Below are positions 1 through 24,036 of a stretch of DNA of 29,585 bases, piece after piece. The stretch covers positions 1-29,585 of the forward strand of contig JBAVPB010000013.1 of assembly GCA_049692655.1 (NCBI GenBank). Reading direction: 5' to 3'. The DNA is from Chthoniobacteraceae bacterium (GTDB lineage Bacteria > Verrucomicrobiota > Verrucomicrobiia > Chthoniobacterales > Chthoniobacteraceae). The translations under genes were made by a program, and so were the position numbers. Position 1 is the stretch's first letter, and each line of letters begins with the position of its first letter. The notes under the pieces were generated by a model. It did no database searches. It saw only the letters and a list, made by a program, of their open reading frames with translations, and was not told the DNA's origin.

Positions 1-9
1 CCCATGGAG

Positions 10-31
10 GGACATGCTCTGTCATGTCCCA
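10..31 (-). terminator. Hairpin element (34-bp dispersed repeat) downstream of the acyltransferase gene; candidate terminator/REP-like
   Basis: GGGACATG-ctctgt-CATGTCCC, an 8-bp stem with a 6-nt loop. The extended 34-bp unit TGGAGGGACATGCTCTGTCATGTCCCAGTCCCAA recurs, reverse-complemented, at 18476-18509. Confidence 0.45.
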
Positions 32-117
32 GTCCCAAAAACTCTTCACTTAACCCCAGCCGTCAGCTTTCCACGAACCCTCTTTTCGGAAATTTCTTTC
101 CGCAGATGCTCTGGATT

Positions 118-9699: not shown

Positions 9700-9784
9700 C
9701 AAAATTACTACGCGATCCTGTTCATCCTGCCCTTTAAAATGAGAAGAGTTGCGGCACACGCCGCGCGCCGTTACAACCACACCA

Positions 9785-11689
9785 ATGTTACAAGCCTCAC
9801 CATCGCTCCTTTCCGCCAATGAAATCGTCCTTGCTTACGGACACCAGCATCTGCTCAACGGCGTGACGCTCGCGGTCGCCCCGCGCGAGAAGGTCGGCCT
9901 GGTCGGGCGCAACGGTTGCGGAAAGACGAGCCTCCTGAAAATCCTCGCGGGCACGAACGAGGCCGATGCCGGTGAAATCTCCCGCCGCCGCGGACTGCGC
10001 ATCGGATATCTCCCGCAGGAATTCGAGCTCGATGGCACAAAAACCGTCCTGGAAAACATCGAGTCCGGCACGGCGGATCTCATGGAGTGGCTGCGCAAAT
10101 ACGAGGAAGGCGAAGGCACCGAACTCGAGCTTGCCGACATGCTCCACGACATCGAAATGGCCGATGGCTGGAACCTCCAGAGCCGCATCAAGTCCAGCAC
10201 GACCGCGCTCGACGCGCCGCCATTGGATGCGCTGGTAGGATCGCTCTCCGGCGGTGAAAAACGCCGCGTCGCTCTCTGCCGCGCCCTGGTCGCCCAGCCC
10301 GATCTGCTGCTGCTCGACGAACCTACGAACCACCTCGACGCGGAATCGATCCGCTGGCTCGAGGATTTCCTCCAGAAATTTGCGGGCGCGGTGATCTTCG
10401 TGACGCACGACCGCTATTTCCTCGATGTCATTGCGACACGCATCATCGAGATTTCCGAGGGGCGCGCGTTTTCGCACCCCGGCAATTACACCGCGTTCCT
10501 TGAGTCGAAGGCAATCCGCCGCCAGATCGCCGAACAATCGGAGCGGAGACGCCAGCGATTTTTGCGCGAGGAACTTGAGTGGGTGCGTGCAGGCGTACGC
10601 GCGCAACGTTCGAAGTCGCGGAATAGGATCGAATCGTTTTACCAGGTGGAGGGCCTCGAGGCGCCGCCCGAGGAGCGCGAGATGGATCTGCTGATTCCGC
10701 CGGCTCCCGAGCTCGGAAACATCGCCGTGAATCTCGTCAATGCCGGGGCAAAAGTCGGCGAGGGCGCGAATGAACGGTGGCTCTTTCGCAATCTCAACTT
10801 TTCGCTGAAGCCGGGACAATGCACGGGCGTCGTCGGCCGCAACGGCGTGGGCAAGACAACGCTGCTGCGCCTCTGCCTCGGCGAACGCGAGCCGGACGAG
10901 GGCACGGTGACGATCGGCAAGCGCGTGAAGTTCAATTACATCGACCAGTCGCGCATGCATCTCGACCTCGACAAGACGGTGCTCTACGAAATCTCAGGCA
11001 ACAACGAGACCGTTTTCTTCGGGGAGACGGCGATGAGCGCGCGGGCTTATCTGCGGCGGTTTCTCTTCACCGACGAGCGGGTGAAGGAGCCGGTGAAGAA
11101 TCTATCCGGCGGCGAACGCGCGCGGCTTCTGCTCGCGAAAGTGCTGCGACGTGGCGGCAATTTGATCGTGCTCGACGAGCCGACGAACGACCTCGATCTC
11201 GCAAGCCTGCGCATGCTGGAGGAAGGGATCGCGGGGTTCGATGGCAGCGTGCTGGTGGTGAGCCATGACCGTTATTTTCTCGACCGGGTCTGCGACCAGA
11301 TCGTGGCGTTTGAGGATGGCGAGATATTCGTACAGCCTGGCAATTACTCCTACTACCTCGAGAAACGGAAGGCGCGCCAGCAGCAGGAAAAAAGCTGGGC
11401 AAATGTGGCGGCGACCCCGGGTAAGGAATCGGAAACCCAGAAGGGAGCCAAGGTGCGCAAGCTGAGTTTCAAGGAGCAGAAGGAACTCGCGTCGATGGAG
11501 GCGACACTGCTCGTGGTGGAGACGCGGGTGGAGGAGTTGAATACTTTGTTAAACAACCCGGAGTTTTTTGTCACGCGGGCGAAGGAGGCGCCGGGGTTGA
11601 TCGCCGAGCTGGAGGAAAAGAAGATCAAGGTCGCGAAACTCTATGCGCGGTGGGAGGAACTGGATGCCATCGACCAGGCTGGCCGGTAA
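9785..11689 (+). CDS. ABC-F family ATPase (two tandem ABC domains, Uup-like with C-terminal coiled coil)
   Basis: Two Walker A motifs (GRNGCGKTS and GRNGVGKTT). Two signature motifs (LSGGEKRR and LSGGERAR). Two Walker B motifs (LLLLDEPTNHLD and LIVLDEPTNDLD). No transmembrane domain. Charged coiled-coil C-terminal extension. The start is chosen at the ATG at 9785 (MLQASPSLLSANEIV), which aligns with ABC-F N-termini. Confidence 0.9.
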   Translation: MLQASPSLLSANEIVLAYGHQHLLNGVTLAVAPREKVGLVGRNGCGKTSLLKILAGTNEADAGEISRRRGLRIGYLPQEFELDGTKTVLENIESGTADLMEWLRKYEEGEGTELELADMLHDIEMADGWNLQSRIKSSTTALDAPPLDALVGSLSGGEKRRVALCRALVAQPDLLLLDEPTNHLDAESIRWLEDFLQKFAGAVIFVTHDRYFLDVIATRIIEISEGRAFSHPGNYTAFLESKAIRRQIAEQSERRRQRFLREELEWVRAGVRAQRSKSRNRIESFYQVEGLEAPPEEREMDLLIPPAPELGNIAVNLVNAGAKVGEGANERWLFRNLNFSLKPGQCTGVVGRNGVGKTTLLRLCLGEREPDEGTVTIGKRVKFNYIDQSRMHLDLDKTVLYEISGNNETVFFGETAMSARAYLRRFLFTDERVKEPVKNLSGGERARLLLAKVLRRGGNLIVLDEPTNDLDLASLRMLEEGIAGFDGSVLVVSHDRYFLDRVCDQIVAFEDGEIFVQPGNYSYYLEKRKARQQQEKSWANVAATPGKESETQKGAKVRKLSFKEQKELASMEATLLVVETRVEELNTLLNNPEFFVTRAKEAPGLIAELEEKKIKVAKLYARWEELDAIDQAGR

Positions 11690-11707
11690 TGGCAGGGATG
11701 CGGGATA

Positions 11708-11752
11708 GCTGACGGTTGGTAAGGGTTGGCAAGGGTTGATTAGCCCTGCCAA
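11708..11752 (+). repeat. Dispersed intergenic repeat, copy B
   Basis: GCTGACGGTTGGTAAGGGTTGGCAAGGGTTGATTAGCCCTGCCAA. It contains the half-sites TTGGCA-N15-TGCCAA. It lies 19 bp after the ABC-F stop and about 90 bp before jetA. Confidence 0.7.
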
Positions 11753-11841
11753 AACGGATGTTTTTAAATGAATGTGTTTGATTGCTTTTGGGCGCGGTTT
11801 TCTTTGTAATTTTGCGGCCCGACCCTGTTTCGTGACACAAA

Positions 11842-13269
11842 ATGAGTGGACTTGGCCATAGTTTATTTTCCGAAATCTCCCCGAAGTTCTTCGGCGTCCT
11901 CACCGGGCCGAATGCGCGGGTGTACCTCGACGTCGTGGACTGGATCGAGCGGGAAATGCCCGCGCGCGGGGATGCCATGGAGCGCGGCGAGATGCTGGAA
12001 ATCATCGACCGCGTGCTGGCTTCCGGCGCGGTGCTGCAGGCCGATGCCGAGGAGGAGGTCCACGAGGCGGAGGCGGACCATCCAGCGAGCCGCATCCTTC
12101 GCCGGCTGATCACGGCGGGCTGGATTTCGGAGGAAAAGCGGTCGGACTACCGGCATATCGTCACCCTGGAGGCCGCTGCGCAGATATTACTGGAAGCCAT
12201 GCGCAAAATCCTGAGCGACAATGTTGCCGCGTTTACCGGAAGCCTCCGGCTTGTGTGCGACCGGCTGGAGTTGTTGCGGTATCCGCATTCCCGCATGGAG
12301 TTGCCCTGGGAGGAATTGAAGAGCTGCCTCACCGAGGTGCGCTCCGGGTTGCGGGAATTGCTGAAAATCCGCAAGCAGGTGGAACGCTACGCCCAGCGCC
12401 AGTTGAAGACCGTCACCATCGCGGAGGCGCTCGACATTATTTACAACGAATTTTCCACGCTCATCACGCAGCAATGCTATCGCGAGTTGATCCACGCCCG
12501 GCTGCCCGAGCGGCTGCGGCAGGCGATGGAGGGACTCACGAATCTGGAGCAGGATGACCTCGCCCTCCAGAAATTACGTGACGATTTCATCCGCACCGCG
12601 CCGGATGCGACCGGCGCCATGCACGAGATCCTGCGGACAATCGAGGAGCTGTCGCTCGCCCTGGGGGATGTCGAGCCGACTGCGGACCGCGTCGATACCA
12701 GCACCGCCGATTTTGCGCGGCGCTCGCGGTCACGCATCCGCTACATCCAGGATGTGGGTTCGGCGCGCAGGCAGCAGATCAAGACGATCTTCGACTACGT
12801 GCGGGAACACCTTGCCCATGTGCGCCTCGGCGACCTGGAGGACAAATTCTCGCTGCCACCCATCAGGCTCGCGGAAGTCGGACTCGTCGGCAACAGCTCG
12901 CTGGCAAAAAGCCGCAAGCCCACGGACGCAGCGGCCCGGCGCCAGGTGGCTTTGCCCTTGAGCGAGGAGGAGAAAGAGGAAAGCCTGCGCGAAATGGAAA
13001 AGAACATGCGCAACGCGCTGCGCCTCGACCGGGCAAACCGGTTCGTGGACCGTCTGGAACTGAAGCGCGGCGAGAGCATCACCTCGGACCAGATGACGAT
13101 CTTCGCGGAGGATGACATCCTTGATGTGATCTCGTGCCTTGTCTTTGCTCCGGCGGGCGGCGCGAATTACCGGCTCTCCACCCTGCGGCAAATGCACCCG
13201 GAGGAACCTGTGGTGATGGATGCCAAGGGGGAATTTGAAATCGAACGGTTCACCGTGGAGAAAAAATGA
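11842..13269 (+). CDS. jetA: Wadjet JetA (MukF-like kleisin subunit, DUF3375-type), putative
   Basis: 475 aa. It is the first gene of a four-gene operon with the Wadjet size pattern (~475/210/1116/407 aa). Its stop overlaps the jetB start (ATGA). The assignment rests on operon architecture and on the recognisable JetC/JetD partners, not on a visible catalytic motif. Confidence 0.7.
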   Translation: MSGLGHSLFSEISPKFFGVLTGPNARVYLDVVDWIEREMPARGDAMERGEMLEIIDRVLASGAVLQADAEEEVHEAEADHPASRILRRLITAGWISEEKRSDYRHIVTLEAAAQILLEAMRKILSDNVAAFTGSLRLVCDRLELLRYPHSRMELPWEELKSCLTEVRSGLRELLKIRKQVERYAQRQLKTVTIAEALDIIYNEFSTLITQQCYRELIHARLPERLRQAMEGLTNLEQDDLALQKLRDDFIRTAPDATGAMHEILRTIEELSLALGDVEPTADRVDTSTADFARRSRSRIRYIQDVGSARRQQIKTIFDYVREHLAHVRLGDLEDKFSLPPIRLAEVGLVGNSSLAKSRKPTDAAARRQVALPLSEEEKEESLREMEKNMRNALRLDRANRFVDRLELKRGESITSDQMTIFAEDDILDVISCLVFAPAGGANYRLSTLRQMHPEEPVVMDAKGEFEIERFTVEKK

Positions 13270-13898
13270 GCGACGAACTTGCATCTTTGCCACTAGCAGC
13301 GGGACTGCTGCCGGAGCTGTCGGATTCCGACCGCGAGAATCTCCAGGCCGCCGTGAGCGAACTTTTCAACCGTCAGGCAATCATCCGCGACCTCCCGGGG
13401 GAGCGCGAACTCTACGAATGGGCGCGGCTGCATTTCAACTGGGTGAAGGAAATCTGCCTGCTGACCGGGTTCGACGTGATCCTGAACGAGGACGAGCAAT
13501 TGATCCATGCGCTGCCGAAGGAGCGCGCCACGCTGCGCAAGCTGCGGGTCGAGTGGACGCTGGTGTTGCTCGGCCTTTGGTACGATTACGACGTGCAACT
13601 CCGCTCGGAAGGCGCACCTGTCATCTTTACGGTCGAGACATTTAACGAGTCGCTCCGGGACAAGCTGGGCGACCGCCAGCCGGCGCTGACTTCGCTCAAG
13701 GAAATCCTGTCGTTCTTCGCCTCGCGGAAACTGGTGCGCATGGAATACGACGACGAGTTTCACCGTTCCCGGATCGAGGTGCTGCCGACCATCCGGTTCG
13801 TATTGCCCTTCGGCGAACTGGAGAAAGTATCGATCATGCTGGATGACCTCATGGCAACCGGCACCGCATCCGAGAGCCCACAGGAGGAATCGCACTGA
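13266..13898 (+). CDS. jetB: Wadjet JetB (MukE-like subunit, DUF4194-type), putative
   Basis: 210 aa acidic protein. ATGA start/stop overlap with jetA, and its stop TGA overlaps the jetC ATG (tgATG). Size and position fit JetB. Confidence 0.7.
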   Translation: MSDELASLPLAAGLLPELSDSDRENLQAAVSELFNRQAIIRDLPGERELYEWARLHFNWVKEICLLTGFDVILNEDEQLIHALPKERATLRKLRVEWTLVLLGLWYDYDVQLRSEGAPVIFTVETFNESLRDKLGDRQPALTSLKEILSFFASRKLVRMEYDDEFHRSRIEVLPTIRFVLPFGELEKVSIMLDDLMATGTASESPQEESH

Positions 13899-16800
13899 TG
13901 GCCAGCCGCTGCATCCGCCTCACGCGCATCCATGCCATCCAGTGGTTTGGGTATTGCGACACATTCGACATCCACGGGAACCTCTTGATTGCGGGCCGCA
14001 CCGGAGCGGGAAAATCGGTGCTCATGGACCTGATCCAGCTCGTGCTGATCGGCGACCAGCGGTCGAAATACAACGCCGCCTCGGACGGGCGCGGACACAC
14101 CTCGGGCCGCGACAAGAAAAGCTACTGCCTGTGCGACACGCAGGAGGACATCAACGGCGTGCCGCAGTATGCGCGGGATGGCGGCATCACCTACATCGCG
14201 CTGGAATTCACCTGGCCCGACGGGGAGCAGGTCGAGACATGGGGCATGCGGGTCGATTATCCCAACACCGAGACCCAGACGCCCGAGGAGGAATTTTTCA
14301 GGATTTCCGAAAGGCTGGAACGCGCGGATTTCGTCACGCCCGAGGGATACGCGCTCGATCTCGACGGCTTCCGCATCCTAGTCCGGAAAAAAGACGGCGA
14401 AACGTTCCGCAATGTCACCGAATACCGGAAGCGCCTCTCCGAGCACCTGAATTTCCACCGCGACACGATCGATTTTCTCATGCCATCGGCGATGTCGTTC
14501 GCGTTCCTGCCGAAGTTCGACGAGTTCTGCCGCCGGTACATCCTGCAGGCCGAGGATATCAAGATCGAGCCGGTGCAGCAGAGTTACCGGAGCTACCTGC
14601 GCATCCGCGAGGAACTGGAAAAACTGCGCGACAAGGCGCAGCGGCTCGAGGAGACGATCGCCGCGAGGAAGGAATGGGAGGACGCGCGCAAGGATGCCGA
14701 CGCGTGCCGGTTCCTCGAGGCGGAGTTCCAACGCGCAGCCGTGCGCGAGGAAGTCGCCACGCTTGAGAAGAAGCTGGCGGAACTCAACCGGCGCCAGGAG
14801 CAGCAGCAGAAGGATTACGAAGAAGTCTGCCAGTCGCTCACCACAAAATCGCAGGACCTGGAATCGCTGAAAAATCTTTTCAGGGACGAGGGCGGGGCGC
14901 TCCTGCTGGAACTCCAGGAGCAGATCCGCACCAAGGCCAGCCAGATCAGGCAACTCGAGCAAATCGGGAAAACCGTGGAGGAAGAGAAGAAGCGCCGCGT
15001 GCGCGTGACTGGCGAGTTTGCAAAGAAAGCGGCTGAGTTTCTTGCGGAACGCAATGCCGGATCGCCCGCGGAGTTGCTGCTGGCCATCAAGTCCCTAGAG
15101 GAGGGCCGCACTGCGGACATGCGCGCCGCACTGCGCCAGACCGCGCAGGCTGTGAAAGCTGTCGTCGCCCGGGTGAGGACGTCGATCCAGAACGAGAGCG
15201 AAAAATTTGCACAGACTAAAGGCGAGCTTGAGGCGCTGCAATCGCAGATCAAGAATCTCGACCGCAACCGGGTGATCCCCTCGCCGCTGCTGGACGAACT
15301 CAACCGGCAACTGCCAAGGAAGGGACGCGAAAATACGGCGCGGCAGCTTCGCGAGCTGTGCGAGGTGACGGACGAGGAATGGCGTCCCGCGCTGGAGCTG
15401 GCTTTCACCCGCAAATTCGCAGTGGTGACGAGCGCGGATGATTACCCGGCGGCGATGCGCATCTACAAGGATTTCCAGCAGGACAGCCAGCATGAGTCGC
15501 TGGTCGATCCGGACCGCGCGCTGTCGAAAAAACCGAAGGTGCTCGAGCATTCGCTCGCGGAAAAAATAGAATCGAAGCATCCGGTCGCCCGCGCTGTGCT
15601 GGATGAGTTGTTCGGTGGCGTCATTTGCGTGACCGCGCTCGACGACCTGCGGAAACATCCCGACGCAATCATGCCCGACGGGTTCCGGCAGCGGGGGATG
15701 TTTGCCGAGCGTCCGCGCCGGTACGACGGGTTTCCATGCATCGGCGCGAAGGGGATCGAGCGGCTCAAGGCGATGCTCGGCGCGAAGGCGGATGAATGCT
15801 CGGCCACGATCCGGCGCATCGAACCGCTGCTGGCGAGGGCGGAACAAATCCAGCGGATGGTTTCCGAGCAAAAGCTGGACTCCGAGGACATCGAGGGGGA
15901 CATCAATTCCGCATCGCGCCTGACGGAACTGGAAAAGGAGCGGGATACGCTGATCGCCCGGAACTCTGCGGCTTCCACGCCGGAGATGGAGAAACGGATC
16001 GAGGCGATCACCGCACTGACCAACCTCGTGAGGTCGCTGGACGAGCGCCGTCTTGAGTTGCACGGGAAGCTTCAATCCACGGAAAAGAACGATATCTCGG
16101 AACGTCTGGACGATGCGAAGCGAAGCCTCGACCGCGCGGAAAAAGCGTACCAGGAGACGATGACGAGCGTGGCAGCCGCGATCGACGTGGCACGGTGCGA
16201 TGCGTTGCGCGCCGAACTGACCGCGCAATACCCCACGGACGAATCGCGTGCGACGAAAGCGGGCCAGCGTTACCGGGAATTTGAAATCCGGCTGCCTGAA
16301 ATCAAAAGCCGTCTGGATTTGCTGAGGAAAGGGCTTGTCGATCAGCATGTGGACCTGCTTGCCGAGCCGGATTTCGATCCTAATACGGAATGGAATCCGT
16401 CTTACCGCAAACTCCTGGAACGCATCAAGGTGGAGGACATGCCGATGAGGCAGAAGCAGGCACTCGACGAGGAGCAGCGGTGGCAGGAATTGTTCAAGAC
16501 CACGGTGGCTGCACGTCTCTCGCAATCGCTGGGGAAGGTGCGGGACACAATCCGCGACCTGAATTTCCAGCTCAAGAATCCGATCGGCGACAGCCTGTAC
16601 CACATCCGCGTGGATGAAAGTCCGTCGCGTGAATTCCAAGAATACCGGCGGGTGCTGGAGGCGTGCTCAGTCACGCAGGAGGGGGACAGCATTTTTGCCT
16701 CGCTGGAAACCGAGGCGCGGGCGGGGGTGGAAAAAGTTTTCAAGGCGCTGGTGGATGAGCCCGAGGGGAAACTGGCGCAGGCGTTTCTCGATTACCGGAG

Positions 16801-17248
16801 TTACTACCGGTACGACATGGACGTGAGCGATCCGAAGCGGCCGGAGCTCCCGGCGAAAAGCCTGAACCGGCATGCGGATAAATTCAGCGGCGGGGAGAAG
16901 CAGACGCCTTTCTATATCTCGATCCTGGCGTGTTACCTGCGGGCTTACAAACGGCACCTGCCGCAGCGCTATACGGAGCCTTCCATCGGCCTCGTGCCGA
17001 TTGATGAGGCGTTTTCGAAGATGTCGGGCGAGCGCATCACGGACGCAATCCGGGCGCTGCGCGACACGGATCTGCAGGGCATCCTTTCGATGTCGAGCGG
17101 CAACTGGCCTTATGCGATCGGCGAATGCGACCAGGTGCTGGCGGTGCATCAGCGCGATACTTTTGAGAACGGGCGGAAATCGATCCGGAACATCGGCGCA
17201 CTGCTGGACCGGAAGGAGGCATTGAAACGCTCGGAGGAGTGGGGATGA
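13898..17248 (+). CDS. jetC: Wadjet JetC (SMC/MukB-like ATPase)
   Basis: 1116 aa. N-terminal Walker A in LLIAGRTGAGKSVLMDL (~13994-14017). Very long heptad-rich coiled-coil middle region. C-terminal ABC/SMC signature FSGGEKQ (~16884-16904). Walker B/D-loop in GLVPIDEAFSKMSGERI. Confidence 0.85.
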   Translation: MASRCIRLTRIHAIQWFGYCDTFDIHGNLLIAGRTGAGKSVLMDLIQLVLIGDQRSKYNAASDGRGHTSGRDKKSYCLCDTQEDINGVPQYARDGGITYIALEFTWPDGEQVETWGMRVDYPNTETQTPEEEFFRISERLERADFVTPEGYALDLDGFRILVRKKDGETFRNVTEYRKRLSEHLNFHRDTIDFLMPSAMSFAFLPKFDEFCRRYILQAEDIKIEPVQQSYRSYLRIREELEKLRDKAQRLEETIAARKEWEDARKDADACRFLEAEFQRAAVREEVATLEKKLAELNRRQEQQQKDYEEVCQSLTTKSQDLESLKNLFRDEGGALLLELQEQIRTKASQIRQLEQIGKTVEEEKKRRVRVTGEFAKKAAEFLAERNAGSPAELLLAIKSLEEGRTADMRAALRQTAQAVKAVVARVRTSIQNESEKFAQTKGELEALQSQIKNLDRNRVIPSPLLDELNRQLPRKGRENTARQLRELCEVTDEEWRPALELAFTRKFAVVTSADDYPAAMRIYKDFQQDSQHESLVDPDRALSKKPKVLEHSLAEKIESKHPVARAVLDELFGGVICVTALDDLRKHPDAIMPDGFRQRGMFAERPRRYDGFPCIGAKGIERLKAMLGAKADECSATIRRIEPLLARAEQIQRMVSEQKLDSEDIEGDINSASRLTELEKERDTLIARNSAASTPEMEKRIEAITALTNLVRSLDERRLELHGKLQSTEKNDISERLDDAKRSLDRAEKAYQETMTSVAAAIDVARCDALRAELTAQYPTDESRATKAGQRYREFEIRLPEIKSRLDLLRKGLVDQHVDLLAEPDFDPNTEWNPSYRKLLERIKVEDMPMRQKQALDEEQRWQELFKTTVAARLSQSLGKVRDTIRDLNFQLKNPIGDSLYHIRVDESPSREFQEYRRVLEACSVTQEGDSIFASLETEARAGVEKVFKALVDEPEGKLAQAFLDYRSYYRYDMDVSDPKRPELPAKSLNRHADKFSGGEKQTPFYISILACYLRAYKRHLPQRYTEPSIGLVPIDEAFSKMSGERITDAIRALRDTDLQGILSMSSGNWPYAIGECDQVLAVHQRDTFENGRKSIRNIGALLDRKEALKRSEEWG

Positions 17249-18462
17249 GCCCGGTGACCGACGTGATCGCGCGGCGCTATCTGGCGAGCCGGGCGGGACG
17301 CACGGGTGCAGGCAGGCAGGACTTGATTTTTCCATTCAACGATCTGCTCCGCGATGCGGAGAGTCTCCAGGGGTCGGCGCGCCACGAGGCGATCGGGCAA
17401 CTGGAGAGGCTGGAGAAGGAGGAGTTGCTCGTGATCGAGCGTCATGCGCGGGACCGCTCTGCGATTCTCAAAGTGCGGCTGCCGGTTGGCAAAGGAGAGG
17501 CTTTCATCGAGCGGATCGGGCGGCAGGGACCGGAAAGCCAGCGGCGCGGGTTTGCGGAGATGATGGGCGCGGAGTATGCGCAGGCTGCGGTGCCGGAGGA
17601 ATATCGCGAGGATTGGCTGCGGTATTGCAGGCAGACTGCGGAAGCGGCGGCGCGGGGCGTTTCCATAGCGCCGCTGGACAGCGCCAATGTGGACGCGAGC
17701 CGGGAGTTGCTCGATGTCTCGGTGAAACTGCTGAACTGGAAGGGGGAATCGTATCTGCGGTTTGCGAGTTGCGTGGTGTGCGGCGACTCGAAGCGGCTCG
17801 GCAATTTGAAGAGCGGTATCGACCGGCTGCTGGAGCAGATCACGCAGGGGCGCGTGCGGTCGCTGGGCGACCTGGGAATCACCGAGACGGGCGGCGGATG
17901 CTGGTTGCACGGGCCGGGGACATTGATCACGCAGCGGGGGCAGGTGGATCTCGGGGCGCTGAATCTGCCGGGGCATTTTTCGAAGTCGGACCTTGCCGCG
18001 GGGCGGATCGAGTCGGACGCGCAACGCTGGATCACCGTGGAGAATGAGACGATGCTGCTGGAGCTTGCGAAGCTGCACAGCGGCGTGATGCTGATGAGCA
18101 GCGGGTTCCGGGGTGGCGTGGCGAACTCGGCTGTGGTGGGTCTTTTGCAATCGGCTCCGGACTCGGCTGAGTTGTGGCACTTTGGGGATTCGGACCCGAA
18201 GGGGTTTGATATCCTGCGCGATTTGCGGGAGCGGACGGGGAGGCGCATTCGTTCGTTGCACATGGTTTTCCGGCCGGCGGGTGATTCGCCGGCGCTTTCG
18301 GCGGAGGATCGCAGGATCATCCAGCGGTTGATGGTGTCGGAGGCGATGACTGTGGAGGAGAAGGCGGAGATCGGGGTGATGCTTGAGGCTGGCGTGAAGG
18401 GGTTGTATGAGCAGGAGAGCCTGGGACGGCCGGGGGCGGCTTGGATGTTTTACCAAGTGTAA
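17245..18462 (+). CDS. jetD: Wadjet JetD (Toprim/Topo-VI-A-like nuclease subunit, DUF2220-type)
   Basis: About 405 aa. Toprim signatures: Glu in WITVENETML (~18031-18060) and DxD in HFGDSDPKGFDIL (~18181-18210). The ATG at 17245 overlaps the jetC TGA (ATGA). The track start at 17239 is an upstream GTG. Confidence 0.85.
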   Translation: MSPVTDVIARRYLASRAGRTGAGRQDLIFPFNDLLRDAESLQGSARHEAIGQLERLEKEELLVIERHARDRSAILKVRLPVGKGEAFIERIGRQGPESQRRGFAEMMGAEYAQAAVPEEYREDWLRYCRQTAEAAARGVSIAPLDSANVDASRELLDVSVKLLNWKGESYLRFASCVVCGDSKRLGNLKSGIDRLLEQITQGRVRSLGDLGITETGGGCWLHGPGTLITQRGQVDLGALNLPGHFSKSDLAAGRIESDAQRWITVENETMLLELAKLHSGVMLMSSGFRGGVANSAVVGLLQSAPDSAELWHFGDSDPKGFDILRDLRERTGRRIRSLHMVFRPAGDSPALSAEDRRIIQRLMVSEAMTVEEKAEIGVMLEAGVKGLYEQESLGRPGAAWMFYQV

Positions 18463-18487
18463 CATTGTTATGATCGTTGGGACTGGG

Positions 18488-18509
18488 ACATGACAGAGCA
18501 TGTCCCTCC
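18488..18509 (+). terminator. Hairpin element (second copy of the 34-bp repeat) immediately after jetD; candidate operon terminator
   Basis: GGGACATG-acagag-CATGTCCC lies 26 bp after the jetD stop and is followed by a moderately T-rich tail (ctgttgttt). It has the same orientation relative to its upstream gene as copy 1. Confidence 0.45.
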
Positions 18510-19210
18510 ACGCGGCTGTTGTTTGAATGGAAAATCGTGGATTGCAGAGGGCGCAGCGAGGTTCGGAGAATGAGGCGGAGTTAGGTGTTAGATTCTGGTG
18601 CATGTCATGCCTTCTCTACATGAATGTGACGAGCATTCAGCGGGCACAACCCCGGTGGAGTTGGTGTGTTTTTCTTGTGGTTACCCAGGGTAGCCGCGTT
18701 GCGGCAACCCTGAGATGGAGGGCGGAACACCGTTGGTGTTCGGGGACATTTCTGTGTAGATGGTTGGGAGTTACCTATCATATCCGATTATAAACAAATA
18801 TATTTTGGCGACCGAGAAACGTAATAATGAAGATAAGAAGAACGTGCCGTTTCCCTCTGTGTTTTACTTGCGATAGCTTATTTGATGCCACTTTGTTTGT
18901 GGCAGGAGTGTTATTCCGAGTTCGATTGACTTGGAGTTACCGTATTAGTTATTCTAGCCACAGTTCTTTATAGCTTAATGGCCCGGCCTGGCGCCGGGTC
19001 AGCGGGGGAACCAAATATTCCGCAAGTGCGGATCGGGGCTTATGGCGCCTGCGGCGTCAGGAACACTTGGTAGTTCCAGCCCGACAGCTAACCTCGTCAG
19101 CATTACCGGGTATAAGGGCTGTCCTGAAAAGGCTGCACCTGACTCGCAATAAAACAAAAGCTCCAGCTCACGCAGGGGCCGGAGGAAGATAGTTAGGAAG
19201 AGGCAGTGTT

Positions 19211-20518
19211 ATGAAACTTCTCACGAAGTTTGCTATGTTAGGTGTGTTGTGCGCCCTGATATGGGGCGCGGAAACTTACTGGGTGAATGTGATGCAGTCG
19301 GATATCTCCAGGGAACTGGCGATCCGGCAACTGAATGGAGGCAACGGCGCGTTTGACAGGTTGCGCGCGTTTGAATCCACAAAAGACATCATCCATACGG
19401 CTTGCACGGTCGCGATGATCGTGGGGGCGTGCGTCGTATTCTCCACGCCACCGTCGAGGAGCCGGCATCTCACGATGTGGCCGATGCTCATCCTCATGAT
19501 GAGCCTCACCGGCTGTGTGCGGCAGTTTGACAAGCCGGAGTATGCTCTGATCGATACTTCCGAGACGGGATTCCTGATCCCGCTGGAAGGCAACAGTGGC
19601 GAACAGGCGAAATTTGAGTCAGAAGAATACTTGAAGGCCAACAAGGCGCCGTCGAAACGCGTGCAGATCACGCACCGGTGGTCGCAGGAGGGCCGTTTCC
19701 CGACGGATGGGCAATGGATACCCAACGTGCGCCTGATCAAGGTGGACCGCTCGCCGGTGACGCGCGAGTGGACTGCGGACTCGACGACAGGCACATCGAA
19801 CAAAAACCAGGCGATCTGGATCGAGAGCGCGGACAGCGTGGGGTTCAGCATGGGCTTTACCTGCACGGCTTACATCCCCGAGGAATCGGCTGCGAAGTTC
19901 CTCTACTGGTACCCGAGTGGGTCGCTTGCGCAGGTGATGGACACGGAGATCCGGGGCCGAATCCAGCAGGCGGCGTCGGAAGTTGCCGCGAAATATCCGC
20001 TCGATTCGTTGCGGGAAAAGAAACAGGAAATCTGCGATGCGGTGCGCAGCAATGTGACCGATTTCTTCCTCGCGCGCGGCGTGGTGGTGACCACGATCGG
20101 CATGTTTGGCGGCATGACGTACGAGAACCAGGAGATCCAGAAATCGATCGATGCCACGGTGATCGCGCAACAATTGAAAGTGGTGAACCAGGCAAAATTC
20201 GAGGCGCAGCAGAAGGACAATGAGCGCGTGGAACTGGAAGCCAACGCGACGGCCGAGAAGGCGCGGCGCATTGCCTCGGGTGAGGCCGATGCGAAGAAGA
20301 CCATCGCGCTTGCGGAAGCGCAGGCGATCCGCGAGATCAACAAGGCGCTGAGCGAAGGTCAGCAGAATCCGCTGCTCTACCAGTTCAAAACGCTGGATGT
20401 GGAGAAGGCGCGGGTGGAAAAATGGAATGGTGCGTATCCGAACTACTACATCAGCTCCGGTGGCGGGAATGGCGCCGCGGCCATGCTGCTGCAAGTGCCG
20501 CCTCCATCCGTGAAGTAA
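19211..20518 (+). CDS. SPFH/band-7 (prohibitin/HflC-like) domain protein; possible lipoprotein from an internal start at 19475
   Basis: 435 aa. The C-terminal region (RIASGEADAKKTIALAEAQAIREINKALSEGQQNPLLYQFKTLDVEKARVEKW) resembles the HflK/C-prohibitin coiled-coil tail. An internal ATG at 19475, preceded by GAGGAG, gives MWPMLILMMSLTGC (lipobox L-T-G-C). The upstream 88 codons encode two hydrophobic helices. Confidence 0.6.
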   Translation: MKLLTKFAMLGVLCALIWGAETYWVNVMQSDISRELAIRQLNGGNGAFDRLRAFESTKDIIHTACTVAMIVGACVVFSTPPSRSRHLTMWPMLILMMSLTGCVRQFDKPEYALIDTSETGFLIPLEGNSGEQAKFESEEYLKANKAPSKRVQITHRWSQEGRFPTDGQWIPNVRLIKVDRSPVTREWTADSTTGTSNKNQAIWIESADSVGFSMGFTCTAYIPEESAAKFLYWYPSGSLAQVMDTEIRGRIQQAASEVAAKYPLDSLREKKQEICDAVRSNVTDFFLARGVVVTTIGMFGGMTYENQEIQKSIDATVIAQQLKVVNQAKFEAQQKDNERVELEANATAEKARRIASGEADAKKTIALAEAQAIREINKALSEGQQNPLLYQFKTLDVEKARVEKWNGAYPNYYISSGGGNGAAAMLLQVPPPSVK

Positions 20519-23979: not shown

Positions 23980-23997
23980 GGGATACGCAATAGCAGA

Positions 23998-24027
23998 GGG
24001 TTGGCAAGGGTTGATTAGCCCTGGCAA
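23998..24027 (+). repeat. Dispersed intergenic repeat, copy C (direct relative to copy B)
   Basis: GGGTTGGCAAGGGTTGATTAGCCCTGGCAA. It is identical to the core of copy B except for one base. It lies 19-48 bp upstream of the GH38 start codon. Confidence 0.7.
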
Positions 24028-24036
24028 ATGAATGAT

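Follow-up and report, generated by a model that had tools for sequence, protein, structure and literature searches.

Does the run of four genes at positions 11842-18462 of contig JBAVPB010000013.1, from a Chthoniobacteraceae (Verrucomicrobiota) metagenome-assembled genome, encode a complete and working defence system against plasmids, and do the sequences around it belong to that system? The window that we analysed is the whole contig, a stretch of 29,585 nt in which these genes lie, and a preliminary description of it had proposed a four-gene Wadjet (JetABCD) operon in a distinctive chromosomal context. Our analysis indicates that 11842-18462 is very probably a complete, intact and chromosomal type I Wadjet operon (JetABCD, alias MksBEFG or EptABCD). 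Below we document its gene content and order, the family membership of its products, their intact motifs, the fold of JetD and the purifying selection that acts on the locus.

An open reading frame (ORF) scan and direct reading of the sequence both gave four co-oriented, overlapping ORFs, which fill the interval on the forward (+) strand in the order jetA-jetB-jetC-jetD. The jetA gene (11842..13269) encodes the kleisin (MukF-like) subunit of 475 aa, jetB (13266..13898) the KITE (MukE-like) subunit of 210 aa, and jetC (13898..17248) the SMC/MukB-like ABC ATPase of 1116 aa. The last gene, jetD (17245..18462), encodes a CAP plus Toprim nuclease of 405 aa from its ATG, or of 407 aa from an alternative GTG start at 17239. 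The direct read showed an ATGA at the A/B junction (AAAAAATGAGC), where jetA and jetB overlap by 4 nt, a TGATG at the B/C junction (CACTGATGGCC), where jetB and jetC overlap by 1 nt, and a second ATGA at the C/D junction (GGGGATGAGCC), where jetC overlaps the ATG start of jetD by 4 nt. These overlapping stop and start codons are compatible with co-transcription and translational coupling of the jet genes, none of which contains a frameshift or an internal stop. The co-oriented genes, their junctions and every motif quoted in the preliminary description were found at their places. It contained one trivial inconsistency: it gave jetD 407 aa, which is correct for the GTG start, together with the ATGA overlap, which is correct for the 405-aa ATG start, and the two do not combine. 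The NCBI record uses the ATG at 17245 (405 aa), from which the JetD residues are numbered here.

The proposed Wadjet identity was borne out by profile searches, in which the Pfam matches of all four proteins exceeded the curated cut-offs and the best PADLOC model was a type I Wadjet model in four cases out of four. JetA matched the Pfam family PF18982 JetA (6.5e-40, 137.4 bits against a cut-off of 26.2, positions 14-421 of 434) and, over its full length, PADLOC JetA1 (2.5e-39). DUF3375 had been named beforehand as the JetA family; the family that matches is instead PF18982, the former DUF5716, which belongs to type I. JetB matched DUF4194 (1.2e-11, 45 bits against a cut-off of 32.7) and PADLOC JetB1 (3.7e-15, residues 20-180 of 210). 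JetC was recognized by PADLOC JetC1 at 6.7e-153 and 509 bits, with residues 7-1087 on model positions 3-1077 of 1097, and by the Pfam families AAA_29 at the N-terminus (9e-11) and SbcC_Walker_B at the C-terminus (3.3e-17). The middle of the protein (231-811) matched the arm and hinge part of the TIGR02168 SMC model at 1.3e-11, under that model's cut-off. JetD matched Pfam JetD_C (1.7e-10) and PADLOC JetD1 (2e-23, 81 bits, residues 35-395). In NCBIfam none of the four proteins had a model of its own, and the only matches, all sub-threshold, were SMC matches of JetC. The exact proteins are deposited as MGB8352368.1 to MGB8352371.1; the first, JetA, is named 'Wadjet anti-phage system protein JetA family protein', and the other three are named as DUF4194 domain-containing, SbcC/MukB-like Walker B domain-containing and JetD domain-containing proteins. 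The system is already annotated as Wadjet in the public record and is an ordinary member of a well-characterized family.

Reading of the JetC translation located a Walker A motif (GRTGAGKS, aa 33-40, 13994..14017, + strand), an ABC signature (FSGGEKQ, aa 996-1002, 16883..16903, +) and a Walker B motif (PIDEAF, aa 1034-1039, 16997..17014, +). With the long intervening arm and hinge, these are the features expected of an SMC-type ABC ATPase, and JetC is predicted to be one. By its place in the motif (D-E), E1037 would stand where the catalytic glutamate of a Walker B motif normally lies. In JetC of E. coli GF4-3 this glutamate is E1022, and the E1022Q substitution abolishes plasmid restriction in E. 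coli.

The preliminary description had judged the nuclease residues of JetD to be apparently intact, and both Toprim motifs were confirmed in the translation. The Toprim glutamate motif VENE lies at aa 265 (18037..18048, +), with E266 as the predicted metal-binding residue, and the DxD motif FGDSDPKGFDIL lies at aa 313 (18181..18216, +) and contributes D315 and D317. A homologue search returned 378 sequences with an E-value of 1e-5 or better, and in an alignment of 36 of these, which share 41-89% identity with the query, E266, N267, D315 and D317 were invariant, as were K183 and the stretch E389-Q390-E391. The JetD profile matched topoisomerase VI-A of M. jannaschii (1d3y) at 3.2e-7; E266 aligned with chain residue 129 (E197) of this structure, and D315 and D317 with D249 and D251. 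In topoisomerase VI-A, E197, D249 and D251 coordinate Mg2+; their counterparts in E. coli JetD are E248, D290 and D292, and the E248A substitution in the E. coli protein abolishes both restriction and cleavage (Liu et al. 2022). An AlphaFold2 model built from the homologue alignment was confident, with a predicted local distance difference test (pLDDT) score of 91.1, and a Foldseek search with it ranked topoisomerase VI-A and Spo11 first, with weak matches to MukBEF entries. JetD has a Toprim fold like that of topoisomerase VI-A and MksG. A fourth protein lacking this fold had been named beforehand as grounds for rejecting the Wadjet identity, and those grounds fall away.

Relatives of the operon share its architecture, with proteins of 473-475/207-208/1116/402-407 aa. 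Compared with an 89%-identical relative (L088), the ratio of non-synonymous to synonymous substitution (dN/dS) was 0.085 across the 460 C-terminal residues of JetC and 0.21 across JetD, values that place the operon under purifying selection as judged from these alignments. GC content at third codon positions (GC3) was 0.79-0.80 in the jet genes and 0.60-0.80 in their neighbours, and neither composition nor codon usage carries a sign of recent transfer. The locus is accordingly predicted, from its coding sequences, to be an intact, functional system.

How such a system would act can be modelled on the type I systems of E. coli GF4-3, P. aeruginosa PA14 and C. glutamicum. Published accounts describe type I Wadjet as restricting circular DNA of up to ~100 kb and sparing linear DNA, and as dependent on the ATPase of JetC and on the Toprim glutamate of JetD; circular-DNA cleavage or plasmid restriction is described there for E. 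coli, P. aeruginosa, C. glutamicum and Bacillus-expressed systems. In the current model, as these accounts present it, a JetABC motor dimer extrudes a DNA loop and stalls on a fully extruded small circle, after which JetD cleaves. By analogy with the family, complex assembly, loop extrusion, a preference for circular DNA and an anti-plasmid phenotype would be expected of the operon described here. JetC, JetA and JetB would form a dimer of SMC motors that loads on DNA and extrudes loops using ATP. On a small closed circle, extrusion would reach completion and stall, which would activate a JetD dimer, and the Toprim metal site (E266, D315 and D317) would then hydrolyse both strands and linearize the plasmid. 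Cleavage would spare the large chromosome as well as linear DNA. Nothing that we observed argues for another mechanism.

The nearest known parallels are the type I Wadjet systems of E. coli GF4-3 and P. aeruginosa PA14 (Liu et al. 2022; Deep et al. 2022; Roisne-Hamelin et al. 2023/24; Pradhan et al. 2024), which have the same jetA-B-C-D order and the same combination of kleisin, KITE, SMC ATPase and CAP-Toprim nuclease. The proteins are similar in size, with the Walker B glutamate at E1037 here and at E1022 in E. coli JetC, and both carry the E/DxD Toprim triad, E266/D315/D317 here and E248/D290/D292 in E. coli JetD. The operon of the window differs from these systems in its distant sequences, in a JetB that lacks a literal IFDR motif and in its uncultured Verrucomicrobiota host. 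JetD was 18% identical, over aligned residues, to MksG of the Corynebacterium glutamicum MksBEFG system (PDB 8b7f; Weiss et al. 2023, PMC10123090). Unlike topoisomerase VI subunit A and Spo11, JetD is the effector of an SMC complex and not a topoisomerase, and has no B subunit; published work describes JetD as having no catalytic tyrosine in its CAP domain and as hydrolysing DNA with no covalent intermediate. The MukBEF and MksBEF condensins share the SMC-kleisin-KITE core architecture, but they act on the chromosome and lack the Toprim nuclease gene that is present here as the fourth gene.

Several results weigh against identification of the locus as an intact type I system. A phmmer single-sequence search of the four proteins against PDB sequences found no solved Jet or Muk structure, from which it follows that these sequences lie far from those of the characterized systems. 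The Pfam JetD_C match was partial, spanning 35-116 of the 179 model positions, and Pfam matched no N-terminal JetD family. In type I JetB an N-terminal IFDR motif binds the arm-CAP domain of JetD, whereas residues 1-30 of the JetB of the window contain no literal IFDR; in its place the N-terminal tail holds a conserved ELSDSDR stretch, and the conserved sequence LLPELSDSDRENLQ was found in the window and in five relatives. A scan for promoter and terminator consensus sequences yielded no more matches than shuffled sequence did and found none for the operon, a sigma-70 scan being uninformative for Verrucomicrobiota. Finally, we located no experiment in the literature on this system or on any Verrucomicrobiota system.

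JetD was also the least conserved subunit in every relative compared (L001, L004 and L006): its amino-acid identities were 69% against 78-82% for JetA-C, 62% against 76-79% and 54% against 74-75%, and its dN/dS was the higher one in the comparison with the C-terminal part of JetC. The faster divergence of JetD might reflect relaxed constraint, or an arms race on the effector. Taken with the divergence of the clade and the missing literal IFDR, it raises the idea that JetD is coupled to JetABC through a different interface, or that the substrate range (size limit or topology) differs from that of characterized type I systems, which we consider unlikely.

Membership of other classes was also weighed. 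Were the operon a Wadjet of type II or III, or a different SMC-like system of defence, Lamassu for example, this could account for the weak PADLOC matches to JetC2 (8.3e-13), JetD2 (4.4e-5) and LmuB (3.7e-4). However, the type I models were far ahead for every subunit, with 509 bits for JetC1 against 45 for JetC2 and 81 for JetD1 against 20.8 for JetD2, and PADLOC returned no JetA2 or JetB2 match. The 1116 aa of JetC are also near the length of the JetC1 models (~1100 aa) and not that of JetC2 (~1365 aa), and JetA matches PF18982, so that membership of these other classes is hardly credible at all. The structural relationship of JetABC to MukFEB noted in a review, and the position of the operon among housekeeping genes, outside a defence island and with GC3 like that of host genes, would fit a chromosome-organizing MksBEF/MukBEF-like condensin with no part in defence, in which the fourth gene is incidental or does something other than cut DNA. 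Yet jetD overlaps jetC by 4 nt and was retained in every relative examined, the metal site of its Toprim domain is intact and invariant, the four proteins best match Wadjet type I models, and relatives of the operon adjoin GmrSD, HNH, restriction-modification and AbiEii genes in defence islands. We regard a purely organizational role as extremely improbable. It is very unlikely, too, that the locus is what remains of a Wadjet that has decayed or become inactive and has lost DNA restriction. The failure to find a canonical promoter or terminator and the JetB tail without a literal IFDR could be taken as signs of decay, but the sigma-70 scan says little for this phylum, the ORFs are uninterrupted with all ATPase and Toprim motifs in place, and the dN/dS range of 0.085-0.21 and protein lengths equal or nearly equal to those of relatives are those of maintained genes.

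A further rival reading makes the type I Wadjet operon part of a single functional or mobile unit, joined with the ABC-F gene and with the repeats on either side, either as a repeat-bounded cassette or as an ABC-F-coupled defence system. The ABC-F gene (9749-11689) lies directly upstream of jetA, as the preliminary description had stated, and its product matched two ABC_tran domains, ABC_tran_Xtn and ABC_tran_CTD. In two contigs sharing 93% identity with the window, those of the close relatives L091 and L092, the order ABC-F, rep1, jetA is retained and the entire ABC-F/jetA spacer is conserved, including rep1, the dispersed repeat that it contains; on the other side, the hairpin that follows jetD, with ~80 nt beyond it, travels with jetD in L088, where similarity stops at ~18591. 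Against a unit of this kind, the left and right repeats are unrelated and form neither inverted nor direct termini, copies of both occur at unrelated intergenic sites, and we found no integrase or transposase in the window. In more distant relatives the jet genes stand beside other genes, and no ABC-F gene is among them. A scan of ABC-F flanks in GTDB genomes found jet genes at 0 of 80 ABC-F loci of other Verrucomicrobiota (at most 75% amino-acid identity) within fetched flanks of up to 10 kb, several contigs ending before 10 kb and almost no synteny being shared; the scan shows that the adjacency is not conserved, and it cannot date an insertion. The absence of jet genes from these 80 loci, together with the other neighbours of distant jet relatives, leads us to interpret the ABC-F adjacency as an accident of this lineage. 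A functional or mobile unit of this kind is most improbable. Neither the ABC-F gene nor the repeats beside the operon form part of the Wadjet system; they are its neighbours.

The region between the ABC-F gene and jetA (11690..11841, +) is probably the jet promoter and 5' leader, although no sigma-70-like promoter match was found in it. It contains rep1 at 11697-11753 (+), which consists of three roughly 10-nt units (GGTTGGTAAG, GGTTGGCAAG and GGTTGATTAG) followed by CCC. This repeat occupies three intergenic sites in the window, with further copies at 2685-2734 (-, inverted) and 23997-24028 (+).

The hairpin element reported to follow the operon was present as a 34-nt dispersed sequence, TTGGGACTGGGACATGACAGAGCATGTCCCTCCA, at 18477-18510 (+), starting 15 nt past the jetD stop codon. 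It folds into an 8-bp stem (GGGACATG/CATGTCCC) with a 6-nt loop. The element was 100% identical at four places in three assemblies: 18477-18510 (+) and 5-38 (-) of the window, L088 2612-2645 and L090 4523-4556. Every copy sits shortly 3' of a gene end in constant orientation; in L090, an unrelated metagenome contig, it lies 6 nt past the stop codon of an unrelated gene. Identical copies that follow unrelated genes, in L090 and at 5-38 of the window, rule out a hairpin specific to Wadjet. Synonymous sites near the hairpin differ by ~30% between the window and L088 while the hairpin itself is identical; it is strongly constrained or has recently spread. The copy behind jetD is probably a 3'-end element of the repetitive extragenic palindrome (REP)-like type, and the family may be a REP-like or terminator-like element that this lineage carries, perhaps one not described before.

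The operon had been described as bracketed by dispersed repeats, and repeats do stand on both sides, but those of the two sides belong to unrelated families. With copies of each at other loci, they are ruled out as marks of a mobile cassette: both are small intergenic (REP-like) repeats and not cassette termini. Nor is the chromosomal context special, as had been suggested, since the ABC-F gene is kept only in near-identical relatives, and the repeats and hairpin recur at other sites.

Downstream of jetD, a 3' tail (18463..18591, +) was inherited with the operon. A blastn comparison matched L088 to 15864-18591 of the window at 88.9% identity and to nothing beyond, so that similarity stops at ~18591, 130 nt past jetD. 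An AT-rich spacer of ~370 nt begins at this point (18592-18960), with a GC content of ~0.52 against ~0.61 in the operon; at the matching place, L088 has a different AT-rich sequence of ~2.3 kb with no large ORF. The spacer could represent a region of variable sequence or the site of a recombination breakpoint. An 88-aa ORF at 18527-18793 is probably not a gene; it had no Pfam match and straddles the end of the similarity to L088.

Beyond the spacer, a c-di-AMP (ydaO/yuaA) riboswitch (RF00379) was identified at 18962-19117 (+), with a score of 50.8 bits against a gathering score of 38 and an E-value of 3.5e-9. It is closely preceded by a sigma-70-like promoter match (TTGACT, 18 nt, TATTCT), which extends as far as 18955. 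The riboswitch lies 94 nt upstream of a gene at 19211-20518 that encodes a 435-aa protein with an SPFH/Band 7 domain. An SPFH-domain gene behind a c-di-AMP riboswitch seems unusual.

The surroundings of the more distant jet relatives are of a different kind. In two of three, L001 (1-16721) and L004 (11355-21209), the jet genes lie in dense defence islands, with GmrSD-type nucleases, an HNH/ScoMcrA-like protein, a PLD-helicase (DUF3427) protein, an Eco57I-type methyltransferase, AbiEii and a NERD protein among the neighbours.

In M. smegmatis, deleting or avoiding Wadjet has reportedly raised transformation efficiency. An account of Clostridium cellulovorans (PMC12287153) describes that such measures can have this effect there. 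With the operon at 11842-18462, the defence systems of an uncultured Chthoniobacteraceae lineage from soil or water now include an intact Wadjet of type I. Its description is mainly a matter of cataloguing and raises no new mechanistic question, and it is relevant to the introduction of plasmids into such bacteria.

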